Of a stretch of DNA of 6,659 nucleotides, positions 1,019 through 6,074 are shown piece after piece (positions within the stretch are counted from its first letter, which is position 1; every line of letters starts with the position of its first letter). Where the stretch lies: the IMG/VR virus record IMGVR_UViG_648276660_000002. One strand, 5' to 3'. The position numbers and the translations under genes were made by a program. Source of the DNA: a virus (Duplodnaviria > Heunggongvirae > Uroviricota > Caudoviricetes). Under the pieces are notes generated by a model. It did not search any database, was not told the DNA's origin, and saw only the letters and a list, made by a program, of their open reading frames with translations.

Positions 1019-2371
<1,353 letters not shown>

Positions 2372-2803: not shown

Positions 2804-2947
2804 ATGACAAAACAACTCAGTCCTTACCAGGACAAAATTCACAAACACATACTACGTGATCGCTTCCTGTCCAGCTTCAAGCAGCCTGGTCGATTCCGGG
2901 CTGAGTTGGAAAAAGTGAAGCTGATGCAGAAGGAGAAAGGTCATGAG
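2804..2947 (+). CDS. Small basic ORF, 47 aa ([48 protein letters not shown]), between cII and the O-like gene
   Basis: AGGAG at 2794..2798, 5 nt before the ATG. The stop overlaps the O-like start (ATGAGTAA). Below the ORF-track size cutoff; found by manual translation. Function unknown. Confidence 0.4.
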
Positions 2948-3803
2948 TAATCTTGCAACCGTAACACATTTAAGGCCTTCACAACGGCCTGTGGAGCGTC
3001 GTGTGGCAGAAGTTGAAGATGGTTATACCCGTCTTGCAAATGCCCTGTATGAAGAGCTTATCGGCGCAGATTTAACGAAAAATCAGAGCAAGGTTGCCCA
3101 CGCCATATGCCGTAAAACATACGGCTACGGTAAAAAGATGGATCGCATCTCTGATAGTCAGTTAGCTCAAATTACCAGGCTGCCAAGACAGAAGGTAAAC
3201 AAGGCCAAGAATGAGCTTATCGCGATGAAGGTTATCCTTCGCGAAGGCCAGCAAATCGGTCCTAACAAGAACATCGAAGAATGGCAAATCGAAGGGTGTC
3301 ACTACTCTGGTGATAATGTCACTACATTGGTGACAAAAAGTGTCACCAAAACGGTGACAGCGCTGTCACCAAAACAGGGACACACAAAAGAAACTATTAC
3401 AAAAGAAAAAAGAAATAATAAAAACACTATGTCCGAAAGTGTTCGGACGGAGTGTGAAAAATCACCTGACCGTCACGAAGAAATCGACAAGGCATTCGAG
3501 GAAATATTCTGGTGTGCAGGCATGCGGAAAGCCGGGAAGAAAAACGCAGCTTCGGCATTCAGAACACAGTTCAGGGAATGGCGTAAAACTACCAGGGGTA
3601 CGGCAAGCGAGTTTGCTACGATGCTGGCAGAAGACATCGCATGCAGGAATGGTAAGCAGTTCGGATTCGACAGGTTGTTACCATCGAGCTACCTGAACGG
3701 TCAACGCTGGAACGACGAGAAGCCAGAAACTATTCAACCACAATCCAAACCATCATCCGCAATCACCGTATCGAAAACTGGCTACGTGTTTTTCGACAGG
3801 TGA
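2943..3803 (+). CDS. O: Replication initiator, lambda O-like N-terminal origin-binding domain with divergent C-terminus, 286 aa
   Basis: N-domain matches lambda O in motifs [50 protein letters not shown]. The gene contains the iteron/AT-rich origin. The C-terminal third does not resemble the P-binding domain of lambda O as I recall it. Confidence 0.88.
3309..3428. other. Origin of replication inside the O-like gene: palindromic iterons (3309..3370) plus AT-rich region (3381..3428)
   Basis: GGTGAtaatGTCAC (3309..3322), GGTGACAaaaagTGTCACC (3329..3347), GGTGACAgcgcTGTCACC (3353..3370), then ACAAAAGAAACTATTACAAAAGAAAAAAGAAATAATAAAAACA. Same layout as ori-lambda. Confidence 0.75.
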
Positions 3804-3910
3804 ACCATGAAATCAAAAATCAAATCGCTACTGGTCGCTGGTTATAACCACGGCTGGTTAAGTATTTCTTTTGTCGATTTCTGGTTTAAAAATCTCAATC
3901 TGAGGGAATC

Positions 3911-5791
3911 ATGACGCCAAGTGAACTTAGCGACCTGCTTTGGGCGCAGGTTGACAGGGTGGCTCCGCACCTGTTGCCAAACGGCAAGAAAGAGGGGCAT
4001 GAGTGGGTTGCCGGTAACGTCAACGGCGACAAGGGAAACAGCCTTAAGGTCAACCTTAGCGGCAAGAAAAAATGGGCTGATTTCGCCGAGGGAGACGGCG
4101 GTGACATGCTTGATTTGTGGATGGCATGTCGTGGAATTAACCTGCATCAGGCTATGCAGGAAGCGAAAGCATTTCTCGGTATCAAGGATGACGATCACCA
4201 TTTCGATGCCAAACGTGAGAAAAAATTCTCCAGACCTGATCGCAAGAAAATCGCCCGCTACGTTACCAGAACAGAATCCCATCTTGAGTACCTGCAATCG
4301 CGTGGCATATCGCCAGAAATCGTAAAGCGCTACGAGGTTGTCAGCGGCAAGGTGTGGAATGGAGAGCGGGAACTGGATGCTCTGGTGATTCCGTACAAAC
4401 GCGATGGTGAGTTGTTGCAGGTCAAGCGAATCAGCACTGAGCGCCCGGACGGGAAGAAAGTCATTATGGCAGAAGGTGATTGCGAACCTTGTCTGTTCGG
4501 ATGGCAGGCTCTGGACGCTGGCGTGAGGGCGGTTGTGCTTTGCGAAGGCGAAATTGATTGTATGAGCTATGCGCAATACGGCATCTCGGCGTTATCCGTG
4601 CCGTTTGGTGGCGGGAAAGGCGCTAAGCAGCAGTGGATTGAGTTTGAGTATCACAACCTCGACAGGTTTGAGGAAATATTCATCTCGATGGACGTTGATG
4701 ATGTTGGTCGTGAAGCCGCAAGGGAAATCGCAAGCCGACTCGGTGAACATCGTTGCCGTCTTGTTACTCTGCCGTACAAAGACATCAACGAATGCCTGAT
4801 GAACGGTGTTACCGAGGATGAAATCTGGCAGTACATCGGCACGGCATCCTACTTCGATCCTGAAGAACTCTACAGCGCGCGAGAGTTTTACCAGGACACT
4901 ATCAACGCTTTCTACGGCAAGCAGCAGTATCTGTTTAATCCACCGTGGGAATCTCTGGCAGATAAATTCCAGTTCCGTGAGGCCGAGTTGACGCTGGTCA
5001 ATGGTGTGAACGGTCACGGAAAAACGGAGGTTGTCGGGCATATGGCACTTGAGGCAATGCGTCAGGGTGTGAAGACGTGCATCGCGTCACTTGAGCTGAA
5101 GCCTGGTATTCTCCTTAAGCGCCTTACCCGTCAGGCGACGTGCTGCAAGATGCCGCCAGTGCTGGAAATTGACTCTGCATTTAAATTTTATGACGAAAGA
5201 CTTTGGGTGTTTGGCCTGACCGGAACGGCGAAAGCCGACAGGCTGATCGAAATATTCGACTACGCTCGCCGCCGATACGGGATCCAGTTATTCATCATCG
5301 ACAGCCTGATGAAATGTGGCATAGGCGACGATGACTATAACGGGCAGAAGGCGTTTGTTGACTCGATTTGCGACTTCAAAAACAAAACAAACTCCCACGT
5401 CATTCTCGTTACTCACTCCAGAAAAGGAGACAGCGAAGAAAAACCAACCGGGAAAATGGACGTAAAAGGCTCTGGAGCGATAACAGACCTGACAGACAAC
5501 CTTTTCATCATCTGGCGTAACAAGGCTCGCGAGAGAGCGTTACAGAGAGTTCAGAGTGGTGAAAAGATGTCAGAGAAGGACGAACAGCTACTGGCATCTC
5601 CGGCATCTGTTTTGATGCTTGAAAAACAACGTAACGGCGAAGGTTGGGAAGGTGGTGTCCCGTTGTTCCTTGACGAGCAATCGCACCAGTTCCTGCAACT
5701 TGAATCAGGATCGCCATATAGCTACATCGCCAATATGCCGAAATCGGAATATGACGAGGCGTGGCGACAGGAAAACGTGACGGAGTATTAA
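3911..5791 (+). CDS. Bifunctional primase-helicase: DnaG-type Toprim primase fused to a RecA-fold, probably SF4 DnaB/T7-gp4-like, helicase; 626 aa
   Basis: Toprim acidic motifs CEGEID (4541..4558) and DVDD (4691..4702); Walker A GVNGHGKTE (about 5003..5029); Walker B LFIIDSL (5288..5308). GAGGG upstream of the ATG. Occupies the slot of lambda P. Confidence 0.9.
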   Translation: MTPSELSDLLWAQVDRVAPHLLPNGKKEGHEWVAGNVNGDKGNSLKVNLSGKKKWADFAEGDGGDMLDLWMACRGINLHQAMQEAKAFLGIKDDDHHFDAKREKKFSRPDRKKIARYVTRTESHLEYLQSRGISPEIVKRYEVVSGKVWNGERELDALVIPYKRDGELLQVKRISTERPDGKKVIMAEGDCEPCLFGWQALDAGVRAVVLCEGEIDCMSYAQYGISALSVPFGGGKGAKQQWIEFEYHNLDRFEEIFISMDVDDVGREAAREIASRLGEHRCRLVTLPYKDINECLMNGVTEDEIWQYIGTASYFDPEELYSAREFYQDTINAFYGKQQYLFNPPWESLADKFQFREAELTLVNGVNGHGKTEVVGHMALEAMRQGVKTCIASLELKPGILLKRLTRQATCCKMPPVLEIDSAFKFYDERLWVFGLTGTAKADRLIEIFDYARRRYGIQLFIIDSLMKCGIGDDDYNGQKAFVDSICDFKNKTNSHVILVTHSRKGDSEEKPTGKMDVKGSGAITDLTDNLFIIWRNKARERALQRVQSGEKMSEKDEQLLASPASVLMLEKQRNGEGWEGGVPLFLDEQSHQFLQLESGSPYSYIANMPKSEYDEAWRQENVTEY

Positions 5792-5820: not shown

Positions 5821-5852
5821 AGGCCTGCTGGTAATCGCAGGCCTTTTTATTT
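5821..5852 (+). terminator. Intrinsic terminator after the primase-helicase gene (tR2-like position)
   Basis: Perfect 8-bp stem AGGCCTGC (5821..5828) / GCAGGCCT (5837..5844), 8-nt loop, followed by TTTTATTT (5845..5852). Confidence 0.6.
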
Positions 5853-5867
5853 GGGGGAGAGTAAATC

Positions 5868-6074
5868 GTGGTTGAGTTAATTTTCTCTGCATTGAGGATT
5901 CTCGGTGCTATGTGGATGGTGGTGACGTTCATTGTGGTTGCCAGCAGTTTTATCCGGTTGGTGGGTGAAGGTAAAGACATGGTGGGTGTGCTTTTCGGTA
6001 GCATTCTAATGTGGGTGATTATCGGTGTTGCGCCTGTCGCTGTAGCAAAAATGGCGTGGCGTTTTGTGAGTTGA
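5868..6074 (+). CDS. Small hydrophobic protein with two predicted transmembrane segments, 68 aa, GTG start
   Basis: MVELIFSALRILGAMWMVVTFIVVASSFIRLVGEGKDMVGVLFGSILMWVIIGVAPVAVAKMAWRFVS. GGGGAGAG lies 6 nt upstream of GTG 5868. G-rich first codon positions look coding. Function unknown. Confidence 0.4.
   Translation: MVELIFSALRILGAMWMVVTFIVVASSFIRLVGEGKDMVGVLFGSILMWVIIGVAPVAVAKMAWRFVS

Follow-up and report, generated by a model that had tools for sequence, protein, structure and literature searches.

In phage ES18, the GenBank record lists gp59 as 'similar to lambda gpO' together with a rep_origin 'similar to lambda ori', followed by gp60, whose function is not known, and by gp61, a 'putative primase/helicase; similar to phage T7 gene 4'. 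An ES18-type replication region was described for phage epsilon34, where the N-terminal domain of this type was reported to be 94% identical to amino acids (aa) 17-148 of lambda gpO (PMC2629481), and the arrangement also appears in a further report (PMC10307801). The classical precedent for an O-type initiator combined with a phage helicase is provided by genes 18 and 12 of P22 (PMC8022706; PMC10307801). As cited in PMC8022706, P22 gp12 is a DnaB-type helicase that lacks a primase domain and works with host DnaG (Wickner 1984). Here, we analyzed a stretch of 6,659 nucleotides (nt) from a virus of the class Caudoviricetes (IMG/VR record IMGVR_UViG_648276660_000002), referred to as the window in the following, and focused on its replication genes at positions 2943-5791. 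The window is 100% identical to positions 1657507-1664165 of NZ_CP146687.1, which belong to a chromosomal prophage of Escherichia coli MS 198-1. We found that the replication region is an ES18-type lambdoid prophage replication module; its arrangement is real but common and already published. A first-pass annotation had proposed a mosaic in which a lambda-O-like initiator is paired with a Toprim primase-helicase instead of P. The domain make-up given there is correct, but the mosaic is not a new one, as it corresponds to the module in the ES18 record, PMC2629481 and PMC10307801. The module comprises the following features.

2943..3803, plus strand: origin-binding initiator of 286 aa with a lambda-O-type N-terminal domain, an origin-encoded linker and a non-lambda C-terminal domain ('replication protein' in RefSeq).
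3000..3284, plus strand: N-terminal DNA-binding domain of the initiator (aa 20-114; Pfam PF04492, NCBIfam TIGR01610).
3297..3382, no strand assigned: array of four internally dyad-symmetric iterons of 19 bp (TGTCAC-N7-GTGACA), in the same alignment columns as the lambda iterons.
3383..3423, no strand assigned: A-rich (A/T-rich) unwinding block, near-identical to the ori-lambda block in an alignment with the lambda and ES18 origins.
3424..3455, no strand assigned: inverted repeat flanking the A-rich block on its right side, with 14-nt arms that are 86% complementary, conserved in ES18.
3474..3728, plus strand: C-terminal helical domain of the initiator (aa 178-262).
3807..3914, plus strand: conserved open reading frame (ORF) of 35 aa, equivalent to ES18 gp60.
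3911..5791, plus strand: bifunctional primase-helicase of 626 aa, of the T7 gp4/Twinkle family according to PHROG, PDB and Foldseek searches.
3968..4186, plus strand: zinc-ribbon-like N-terminal domain of the primase-helicase without Cys or His ligands (aa 20-92), identified by weak matches to the DnaG zinc ribbon.
4535..4798, plus strand: Toprim catalytic core (aa 209-296).
4973..5692, plus strand: RecA-type helicase domain of superfamily 4 (SF4; aa 355-594), based on AAA_25, DnaB_C and an alignment to T7 gp4.
5731-5788, within the primase-helicase gene: conserved acidic C-terminal tail (aa 607-626), which ends in an aromatic residue (...SEYDEAWRQENVTEY; ...ANMPKSEYDEAWRQENVTEY).

As in the ES18 type, a PHROG 33384 C-terminal initiator domain, a PHROG 21848 ORF and a PHROG 239 primase-helicase follow each other in this order in the window. 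ES18 and the window share a DUF2740-like ORF, an O-like initiator with an internal origin, the 35-aa ORF and a primase-helicase of 626 aa, and the amino acid identities amount to 95% for the C-terminal domain of the initiator, 97% for the small ORF and 94% for the primase-helicase. The gp59-gp60-gp61 module of ES18 is also present in epsilon34, g341c, SEN22, Sf101 and mEp043; in Sf101 and mEp043, the whole stretch shows 98.8-98.9% DNA identity to the window. In contrast, the iterons of ES18 are near-identical to those of lambda, and its N-terminal initiator domain is only 48% identical to that of the window. Judged from these sequences, the specificity of the N-terminal domain and the iterons in the window differs from that in ES18. 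The stretch encoding the C-terminal initiator domain, the small ORF and the primase-helicase was found with at least 95% identity in 296 of 5426 complete E. coli genomes (about 5%), and clusters of the primase-helicase occur across the Enterobacterales.

The two halves of the initiator have different affinities. Residues 20-114 match Phage_rep_O in Pfam (E = 1.1e-37) and phage_O_Nterm in NCBIfam (E = 1.7e-30), and aa 1-157 are 49% identical to lambda O in BLASTP, in agreement with the lambda-O-type N-terminal domain noted before. Past aa 157, BLASTP revealed no similarity to lambda O, and a profile of the C-terminal 127 residues aligned to the lambda O C-terminus with an hhalign probability of 0.1%, which bears out the earlier view that the C-terminal third is not lambda-like. 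Thus, an O-type N-terminal domain and an origin within the gene are both present, whereas the P-binding C-terminal domain of the lambda type is absent. The C-terminal domain of the window protein belongs to PHROG 33384 (E = 9e-88), and AlphaFold confidently predicts a bundle of four helices, with a predicted local distance difference test (pLDDT) score of 85-92 for the core at aa ~181-259. A conserved tail continues behind this domain to aa 286. No Pfam or NCBIfam family matched the C-terminal domain, even at E-values up to 10, and a fold search returned no classification. We regard it as a candidate partner-recruitment domain. Some relatives of the domain are called 'primosomal protein' by PHROG and RAST.

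The origin lies within the initiator gene. The four iteron copies are located at 3297-3315, 3317-3335, 3341-3359 and 3364-3382. This pattern occurs four times compared to 0.29 expected matches, it is not found elsewhere in the window, and none of 200 shuffled sequences reached four matches. The iterons are the predicted binding sites of the N-terminal domain. Together with the A-rich block and the palindrome to its right, the region aligns column by column with ori-lambda, while the sequence of the iterons themselves differs. An ori-lambda-like origin had been recognized before; the stretch named there for a gel shift, 3309..3370, is limited to the central part of the iteron array at 3297-3382. 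The window therefore resembles lambda in that an origin with four dyad-symmetric iterons, an A-rich block and a palindrome is placed inside the O gene, which follows cII. It is unlike lambda in its unrelated C-terminal initiator domain, in its iteron sequence and in that the 35-aa ORF and a gp4-like primase-helicase take the place of the P gene. A lambda-type O/P module has a loader gene beside the initiator, and this is not the case in the window: none of its ORFs matched a P-like or DnaC-like loader in Pfam, PHROG or NCBIfam, and RefSeq annotates no loader gene in the flanking prophage.

The 626-aa protein encoded at the position of P matches PHROG 239, 'DNA primase/helicase', with E = 1.5e-171. 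In the PDB, its residues 192-539 match T7 gp4 chains (E = 2.7e-23), and Twinkle is matched with E = 6.5e-14. A Foldseek search with the AlphaFold model returned T7 gp4, Twinkle and Aquifex DnaG as top hits, with E ~1e-17 and a probability of 1.0 for 5ikn and 1q57 and a template modelling (TM) score of 0.78 for the primase fragment 6n9u. The Toprim core (Pfam Toprim_2, E = 3e-12) carries the motifs EGEID at residue 212, DVDD at 261 and KDINE at 290, which align with EGEID, DMDE and KDAN of T7 gp4. In the helicase domain, Walker A (GHGKT, 368), Walker B (IIDSL, 462), THSRK (501) and KGSGA (519) are present, and aa 356-539 can be aligned to T7 gp4. The AAA_25 model reaches its gathering score of 27 (28 bits, E = 2e-6), whereas DnaB_C remains below its cut-off of 27 (23.9 bits, E = 3e-5). 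No N-terminal domain of DnaB was found in the protein, which sets it apart from the DnaB family. The fusion of a Toprim primase to a Walker A/B helicase, as stated in the first-pass annotation, thus agrees with the domain search and the T7 gp4 alignment. Based on its sequence, the protein is a primase-helicase of the T7 gp4/Twinkle family with intact Toprim and SF4 motifs.

Like T7 gp4 and Twinkle, the window enzyme combines a Toprim RNA-polymerase domain with an SF4 RecA-type helicase. It differs from T7 gp4, to which it is ~23% identical, in that T7 gp4 has a Cys4 zinc ribbon and the window protein has none. The setting is also different: the window enzyme belongs to a temperate phage and stands under an origin-binding initiator, while the T7 origin is transcription-primed. 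Genes 18 and 12 of P22 are similar to the window in that an O-related lambdoid initiator is combined with a phage replicative helicase and without a DnaB loader; P22 gp12, however, is of the DnaB type, whereas the helicase of the window is of the gp4 type and fused to a Toprim primase. The C-terminal tail of T7 gp4 binds T7 DNA polymerase. The acidic tail of the window enzyme resembles this polymerase-binding tail, and it is a matter of speculation, by analogy, that it contacts a host or phage partner.

In the primase-helicase, residues ~20-92 lie in front of the RNA-polymerase domain, where all DnaG-type primases have their zinc-binding domain. The zinc domain of T7 gp4 is needed for template-directed priming. 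In the window protein, an N-terminal Cys4 (or CHC2) zinc-binding ribbon is missing. Nevertheless, Pfam Zn_ribbon_DnaG aligns aa 26-92 to model positions 26-92 (E = 0.066), and the NCBIfam dnaG model aligns aa 26-143 to positions 27-155 (E = 1.3e-9 for the whole protein). The motif WADFAEGDGGDMLDLWM at aa 55-71 lies in the segment that is in register with the DnaG zinc ribbon. A profile of 26 N-terminal domain sequences matched the N-terminus of E. coli DnaG only weakly in hhalign (E = 0.004, probability of 8%), and nothing was obtained with the N-terminus of T7 gp4. The same profile retrieved no zinc-binding domain from all PDB sequences; its best match was the unrelated RluF (E = 0.14). Since several weak matches agree on one register, homology to the zinc ribbon is suggested. 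In this approximate register, the first two ligand positions of DnaG fall near the G35/N36 boundary and on N38, and the third and fourth correspond to D57 and E60. The short strands and two helices predicted for the domain would fit a ribbon followed by helices, at low confidence (pLDDT 50-77).

We used aa 1-130 in a HMMER search of 1.84 billion cluster representatives, which yielded 2803 matches at E <= 0.001, and counted alignment columns in the best 150 of them. None of the ligand columns held a conserved cysteine in these 150 representatives. In contrast to this, W55 (140 of 148), D57 (145 of 148), F58, G64 and D65 were almost invariant. P23, G25, G42, S44, W55, D57, D65 and L69 were invariant in the 26 sequences, which are 39-61% identical to the window protein. 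The zinc-ribbon-like N-terminus without cysteines had been noticed before and the absence of the ligands was confirmed; the notion that they had been lost needs to be revised, because the trait is an old one of the whole family, as judged from the 150 representatives, and not recent. The cysteine-less domain presumably represents an old, strongly constrained and functional variant found in a large family.

Between the initiator and the primase-helicase genes, we identified the 35-aa ORF (PHROG 21848, E = 4e-26), which had been overlooked in the first-pass annotation. It begins 4 nt past the stop codon of O, its own stop overlaps the start of the primase-helicase gene (ATGA), and the ribosome-binding site of the latter, GAGGGA, is situated within it. 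The ORF has exactly 35 codons in the window, in ES18 (97% amino acid identity to the window), in phi24B (71%), in Fraca (51%) and in CharmingMan (48%), and these five diverged modules retain the motif LxAGYNxGxL..FV..F..(D/N)LR. All 80 IMG/VR loci contain it, but RefSeq does not annotate it, and no Pfam or NCBIfam family matched it, even at E-values up to 10. A reading of the 108-nt gap as a non-coding spacer was rejected, as both the frame of 35 codons and the ATGA overlap persist at amino acid identities of 48-51%. Taken together, the sequence indicates that the ORF belongs to the module and is translationally coupled. It is absent from Vibrio phage 1.116.O and from the Pseudomonas phages phita81A and CF3a, in which the initiator gene directly overlaps the primase-helicase gene. 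In a few near-identical prophages, the exact junction of the 35-aa ORF with the primase-helicase gene is the insertion site of a 164-aa ORF for an HNH-type homing endonuclease (locus L004, 5492-5986; also L013, L016, L039 and L075), and the primase-helicase then begins at a new upstream ATG (630 aa).

The same three-part stretch is found behind different N-terminal domains. A C-terminal domain at least 95% identical to that of the window is joined to three types of N-terminal domain, namely that of the window, that of ES18 with lambda iterons, and the unrelated HTH_36 domain of phi24B; behind each of them lie the 35-aa ORF and a primase-helicase that is 94-99% identical. A fourth N-terminal type occurs in Fraca and CharmingMan, where the identities to the window are 50-55% for the C-terminal domain, 48-51% for the small ORF and 60% for the primase-helicase, so that these three parts have, by sequence, diverged in step. 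This diversity of N-terminal domains was obtained by tblastn on a phage collection. The 80 IMG/VR loci retrieved with the C-terminal domain represent a narrow sample, as all are near-identical and carry the N-terminal domain of the window type; a primase-helicase follows the C-terminal domain in each of the 79 loci with room for it. These data support the view that the C-terminal domain, the 35-aa ORF and the primase-helicase form a functional unit. Matching DNA sets in at position ~3370 of the window for ES18, epsilon34 and g341c and at ~3419 for Stx2 phages, which places both mosaic joints (3370-3423) in or beside the conserved A-rich origin block. This block hardly differs between lambda, ES18 and the window prophage. 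The origin itself appears to be the crossover point for domain swapping. In the lambda record (locus L084, 858-867), misc_recomb sites are listed just to the right of its A-rich block.

The HTH_36 variant corresponds to the Eru5 replication unit of Stx2a-converting phages, for which Stx2a_F403, itself among the matches to the window, is the reference (PMC8951638) and which is also present in phi24B and Min27. Eru5 shares 95% identity with the window in the C-terminal domain, 71% in the small ORF and 96-99% in the exteins of the primase-helicase, whereas its N-terminal domain is HTH_36 instead of Phage_rep_O. A match of the module to Eru1-3 of Stx phages was rejected in favor of Eru5. The primase-helicase of phi24B (locus L003, 2996-5902) has 968 aa and contains a 342-aa intein with Hint and LAGLIDADG domains in Walker A (...GHGK/ACPLNEP...YVATHN/TEVV, with slashes at the junctions). 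Its Ala at position 1 and its THN/T ending suggest an intein of the class-3 type. A comparable extra stretch is seen in the DNA match of the other Eru5-type phages. The enzyme is mislabelled 'P' in phi24B and split into 'P' and 'DNA primase' in Min27.

As an overall explanation of these observations, we consider it quite probable that the locus is an ES18-type module working along the following lines. After loss of the repressor, rightward transcription from a pR-like promoter would give rise to cro, cII, the DUF2740 protein, the initiator, the 35-aa protein and the primase-helicase. The lambda-O-type N-terminal domain would bind the four iterons in its own gene and destabilise the A-rich block, as in lambda. 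While the C-terminus of lambda O binds P-DnaB, the C-terminal helical domain and tail of the window initiator would recruit the phage gp4-like hexamer. T7 gp4 loads on single-stranded DNA without a loader. By analogy, the window enzyme would load itself on the opened single strand, unwind the DNA and prime via its Toprim domain. Host DNA polymerase III would presumably extend the primers, because no DNA polymerase gene is annotated in the prophage stretch of ~12.7 kb that was examined; an ssb gene of the phage is annotated in this stretch.

It had been proposed earlier that the initiator recruits the phage primase-helicase instead of loading DnaB via P, which is a reasonable reading of the sequence, and that replication is less dependent on host DnaB and DnaG, for which independence is plausible. 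From the absence of a P-like or DnaC-like gene and the presence of a phage gp4-like enzyme, it follows that the module should bypass P, DnaB, DnaC and probably DnaG, as well as the release of P by DnaK/DnaJ/GrpE. It is rather unlikely that all of the stronger assumptions hold jointly, i.e., that the zinc-free ribbon-like domain is a working template-recognition module for priming throughout this large family of prophage primase-helicases, that the 35-aa protein is a dedicated factor coupling the origin-bound initiator to the helicase and that the replicon is fully independent of DnaB, DnaC, DnaG and the DnaK system.

Several points speak against a direct recruitment of the primase-helicase by the initiator and against self-sufficient priming. 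Neighbouring genes may be linked through their adjacency alone and not because their products interact physically, and the AlphaFold models are of moderate quality only (mean pLDDT of 58 for the initiator and of 65 for the primase-helicase). As the N-terminal domain has no zinc ligands, while the zinc domain of T7 gp4 is required for priming, primase activity is not assured. The core of the C-terminal initiator domain also occurs in the initiator of Pseudomonas phage Skulduggery, which is followed by a gene for a DnaC-like loader, and in Vibrio D65 and PVA1, where it precedes ORFs that weakly match P-like loaders (PHROG E ~2e-4); the jackhmmer E-values for these homologues refer to a file of 12 sequences and are rankings only, not of database scale. 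Conversely, the initiators upstream of Pseudomonas primase-helicases that are 39-43% identical to the window enzyme have no detectable C-terminal domain of this kind. In favor of the linkage, Vibrio phage 1.116.O has an initiator with the core directly upstream of a primase-helicase that is 60% identical to that of the window. Since it also precedes DnaC-like and weakly P-like genes, the core is not a dedicated adaptor for the primase-helicase; from its distribution, it seems to be a domain that organizes replisomes in general. Any specificity for a partner would reside in the conserved tail (aa 260-286) or in surfaces that vary. Finally, we found no experimental study on the host-factor dependence or the enzyme of any member of this group in the literature searched.

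The cysteine-less domain gives rise to an alternative in which the protein is a replicative helicase with a dead or crippled primase, so that priming would be left to host DnaG and the module would be independent of DnaB and P only. We consider this unlikely. Such a loss would fit with the lack of Cys and His at the four ligand positions, both in the window protein and in the 150 representatives. In DnaG-type primases, priming sites are read by the zinc domain (PMC4417153), and metazoan Twinkle, a homologue of gp4, is active as a helicase only, owing to changes in its primase domain (PMC3610141). However, the Toprim acidic residues E212/E214, D261/D263 and D291 coincide with catalytic residues in the alignment to T7 gp4, and the strong constraint on the N-terminal domain, with its eight invariant residues in 26 sequences, argues that the domain is still functional. 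In addition, gp4-type helicases are not known to have a DnaG docking domain.

The conservation of the 35-aa ORF could alternatively mean that its product, and not the C-terminal domain of O alone, acts as the adaptor or loader and is thus a miniature functional counterpart of P. The constant length of 35 codons, the ATGA overlap and the motif kept in five modules at 48-97% identity would be in line with such a role, as would the existence of a PHROG family of its own and its presence at 80 of 80 IMG/VR loci. Yet the ORF is missing in Vibrio phage 1.116.O, phita81A and CF3a, and its tight coupling can be lost, as the homing-endonuclease gene parts it from the primase-helicase gene in some relatives. 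The ORF may serve translational coupling only, and T7 gp4 needs no loader; altogether, this role for the 35-aa protein seems decidedly unlikely.

It is highly improbable that host DnaB initiates replication, either via DnaC or by a primosome-like route through a DnaT-like C-terminal domain, with the primase-helicase in a late or auxiliary role in rolling-circle replication or restart: the DnaC-like and weakly P-like neighbours of the core in other phages and the 'primosomal protein' names of some relatives point in this direction, but no loader is encoded in the window or annotated in its flanks, and the primase-helicase gene occupies the exact position of P and of P22 gene 12, is strictly linked to the initiator and attracts an intein and a homing endonuclease, as is typical of essential replication genes.

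According to ORF calls, Pfam, PHROG and the RefSeq annotation, the window has the layout of a classical lambdoid immunity and replication region. Its minus strand encodes ral, N, a small ORF with a secreted-looking product and a LexA-like cI; its plus strand encodes cro, cII, the DUF2740 ORF, the initiator and the primase-helicase, followed by genes of the nin region. The features outside the module are listed below.

1019-1423, minus strand: ORF located 3' of cI in the same orientation, at the position of lambda rexAB (PHROG 2651, function not known).
1420-2052, minus strand: cI, divergent from cro.
2100..2128, plus strand: pR-like promoter TTGACA-17-GAAAAT between cI and cro, found by a consensus scan (10 of 12 matches).
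2156-2371, plus strand: cro, to the right of the pR-like promoter.
2804-2950, plus strand: DUF2740 ORF of 48 aa between cII and O, overlapping the start of O (PHROG 1913).
5821..5852, plus strand: hairpin with T-run resembling an intrinsic terminator, 30 nt past the stop codon of the primase-helicase gene.
5868-6074, plus strand: very hydrophobic ORF of 68 aa directly behind the terminator, where the nin region begins (PHROG 1165).

Rightward transcription of cro, cII, O and the primase-helicase gene presumably starts at the predicted pR-like promoter. The N-terminus encoded by the ORF at 1019-1423 resembles a signal peptide, and the product is possibly a secreted protein or lipoprotein, i.e., a moron made by the prophage. 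The DUF2740 ORF bears the name 'tail protein' in PHROG 1913 and in RefSeq phage records. Because the ORF is situated in the early right operon, this name is almost certainly a propagated misannotation. The hairpin at 5821..5852 has an 8-bp stem with 6 GC pairs (arms AGGCCTGC...GCAGGCCT, then TTTTATTT) and resembles terminators of the tR2 type, which N antitermination has to read through. For phage g341c, a 'terminator' feature is among those listed with the matched stretch of the replication region. The product of the 68-aa ORF has two predicted membrane-spanning stretches; the function of its PHROG family is not known.

Overall, the arrangement of the replication genes is ordinary and already known, as it is annotated in reference phage records and described in the literature. 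The remaining interest lies in the biochemistry of the zinc-free N-terminal domain of the primase, in the role of the 35-aa ORF and in the consequences for the replication of Stx phages. The module constitutes a clean natural case of domain shuffling at a conserved origin segment and includes a relative of the primase zinc ribbon that lacks cysteines. Moreover, ES18-type modules drive the replication of clinically relevant Stx2a phages of the Eru5 type such as phi24B and Min27, and the efficiency of phage replication has been linked to Shiga-toxin output (PMC8044961). Such phages are often regarded as carrying lambda-like O and P, and the primase-helicase is labelled as 'P' in some records; the dependence on host factors that is assumed on the basis of lambda may therefore not apply to them.

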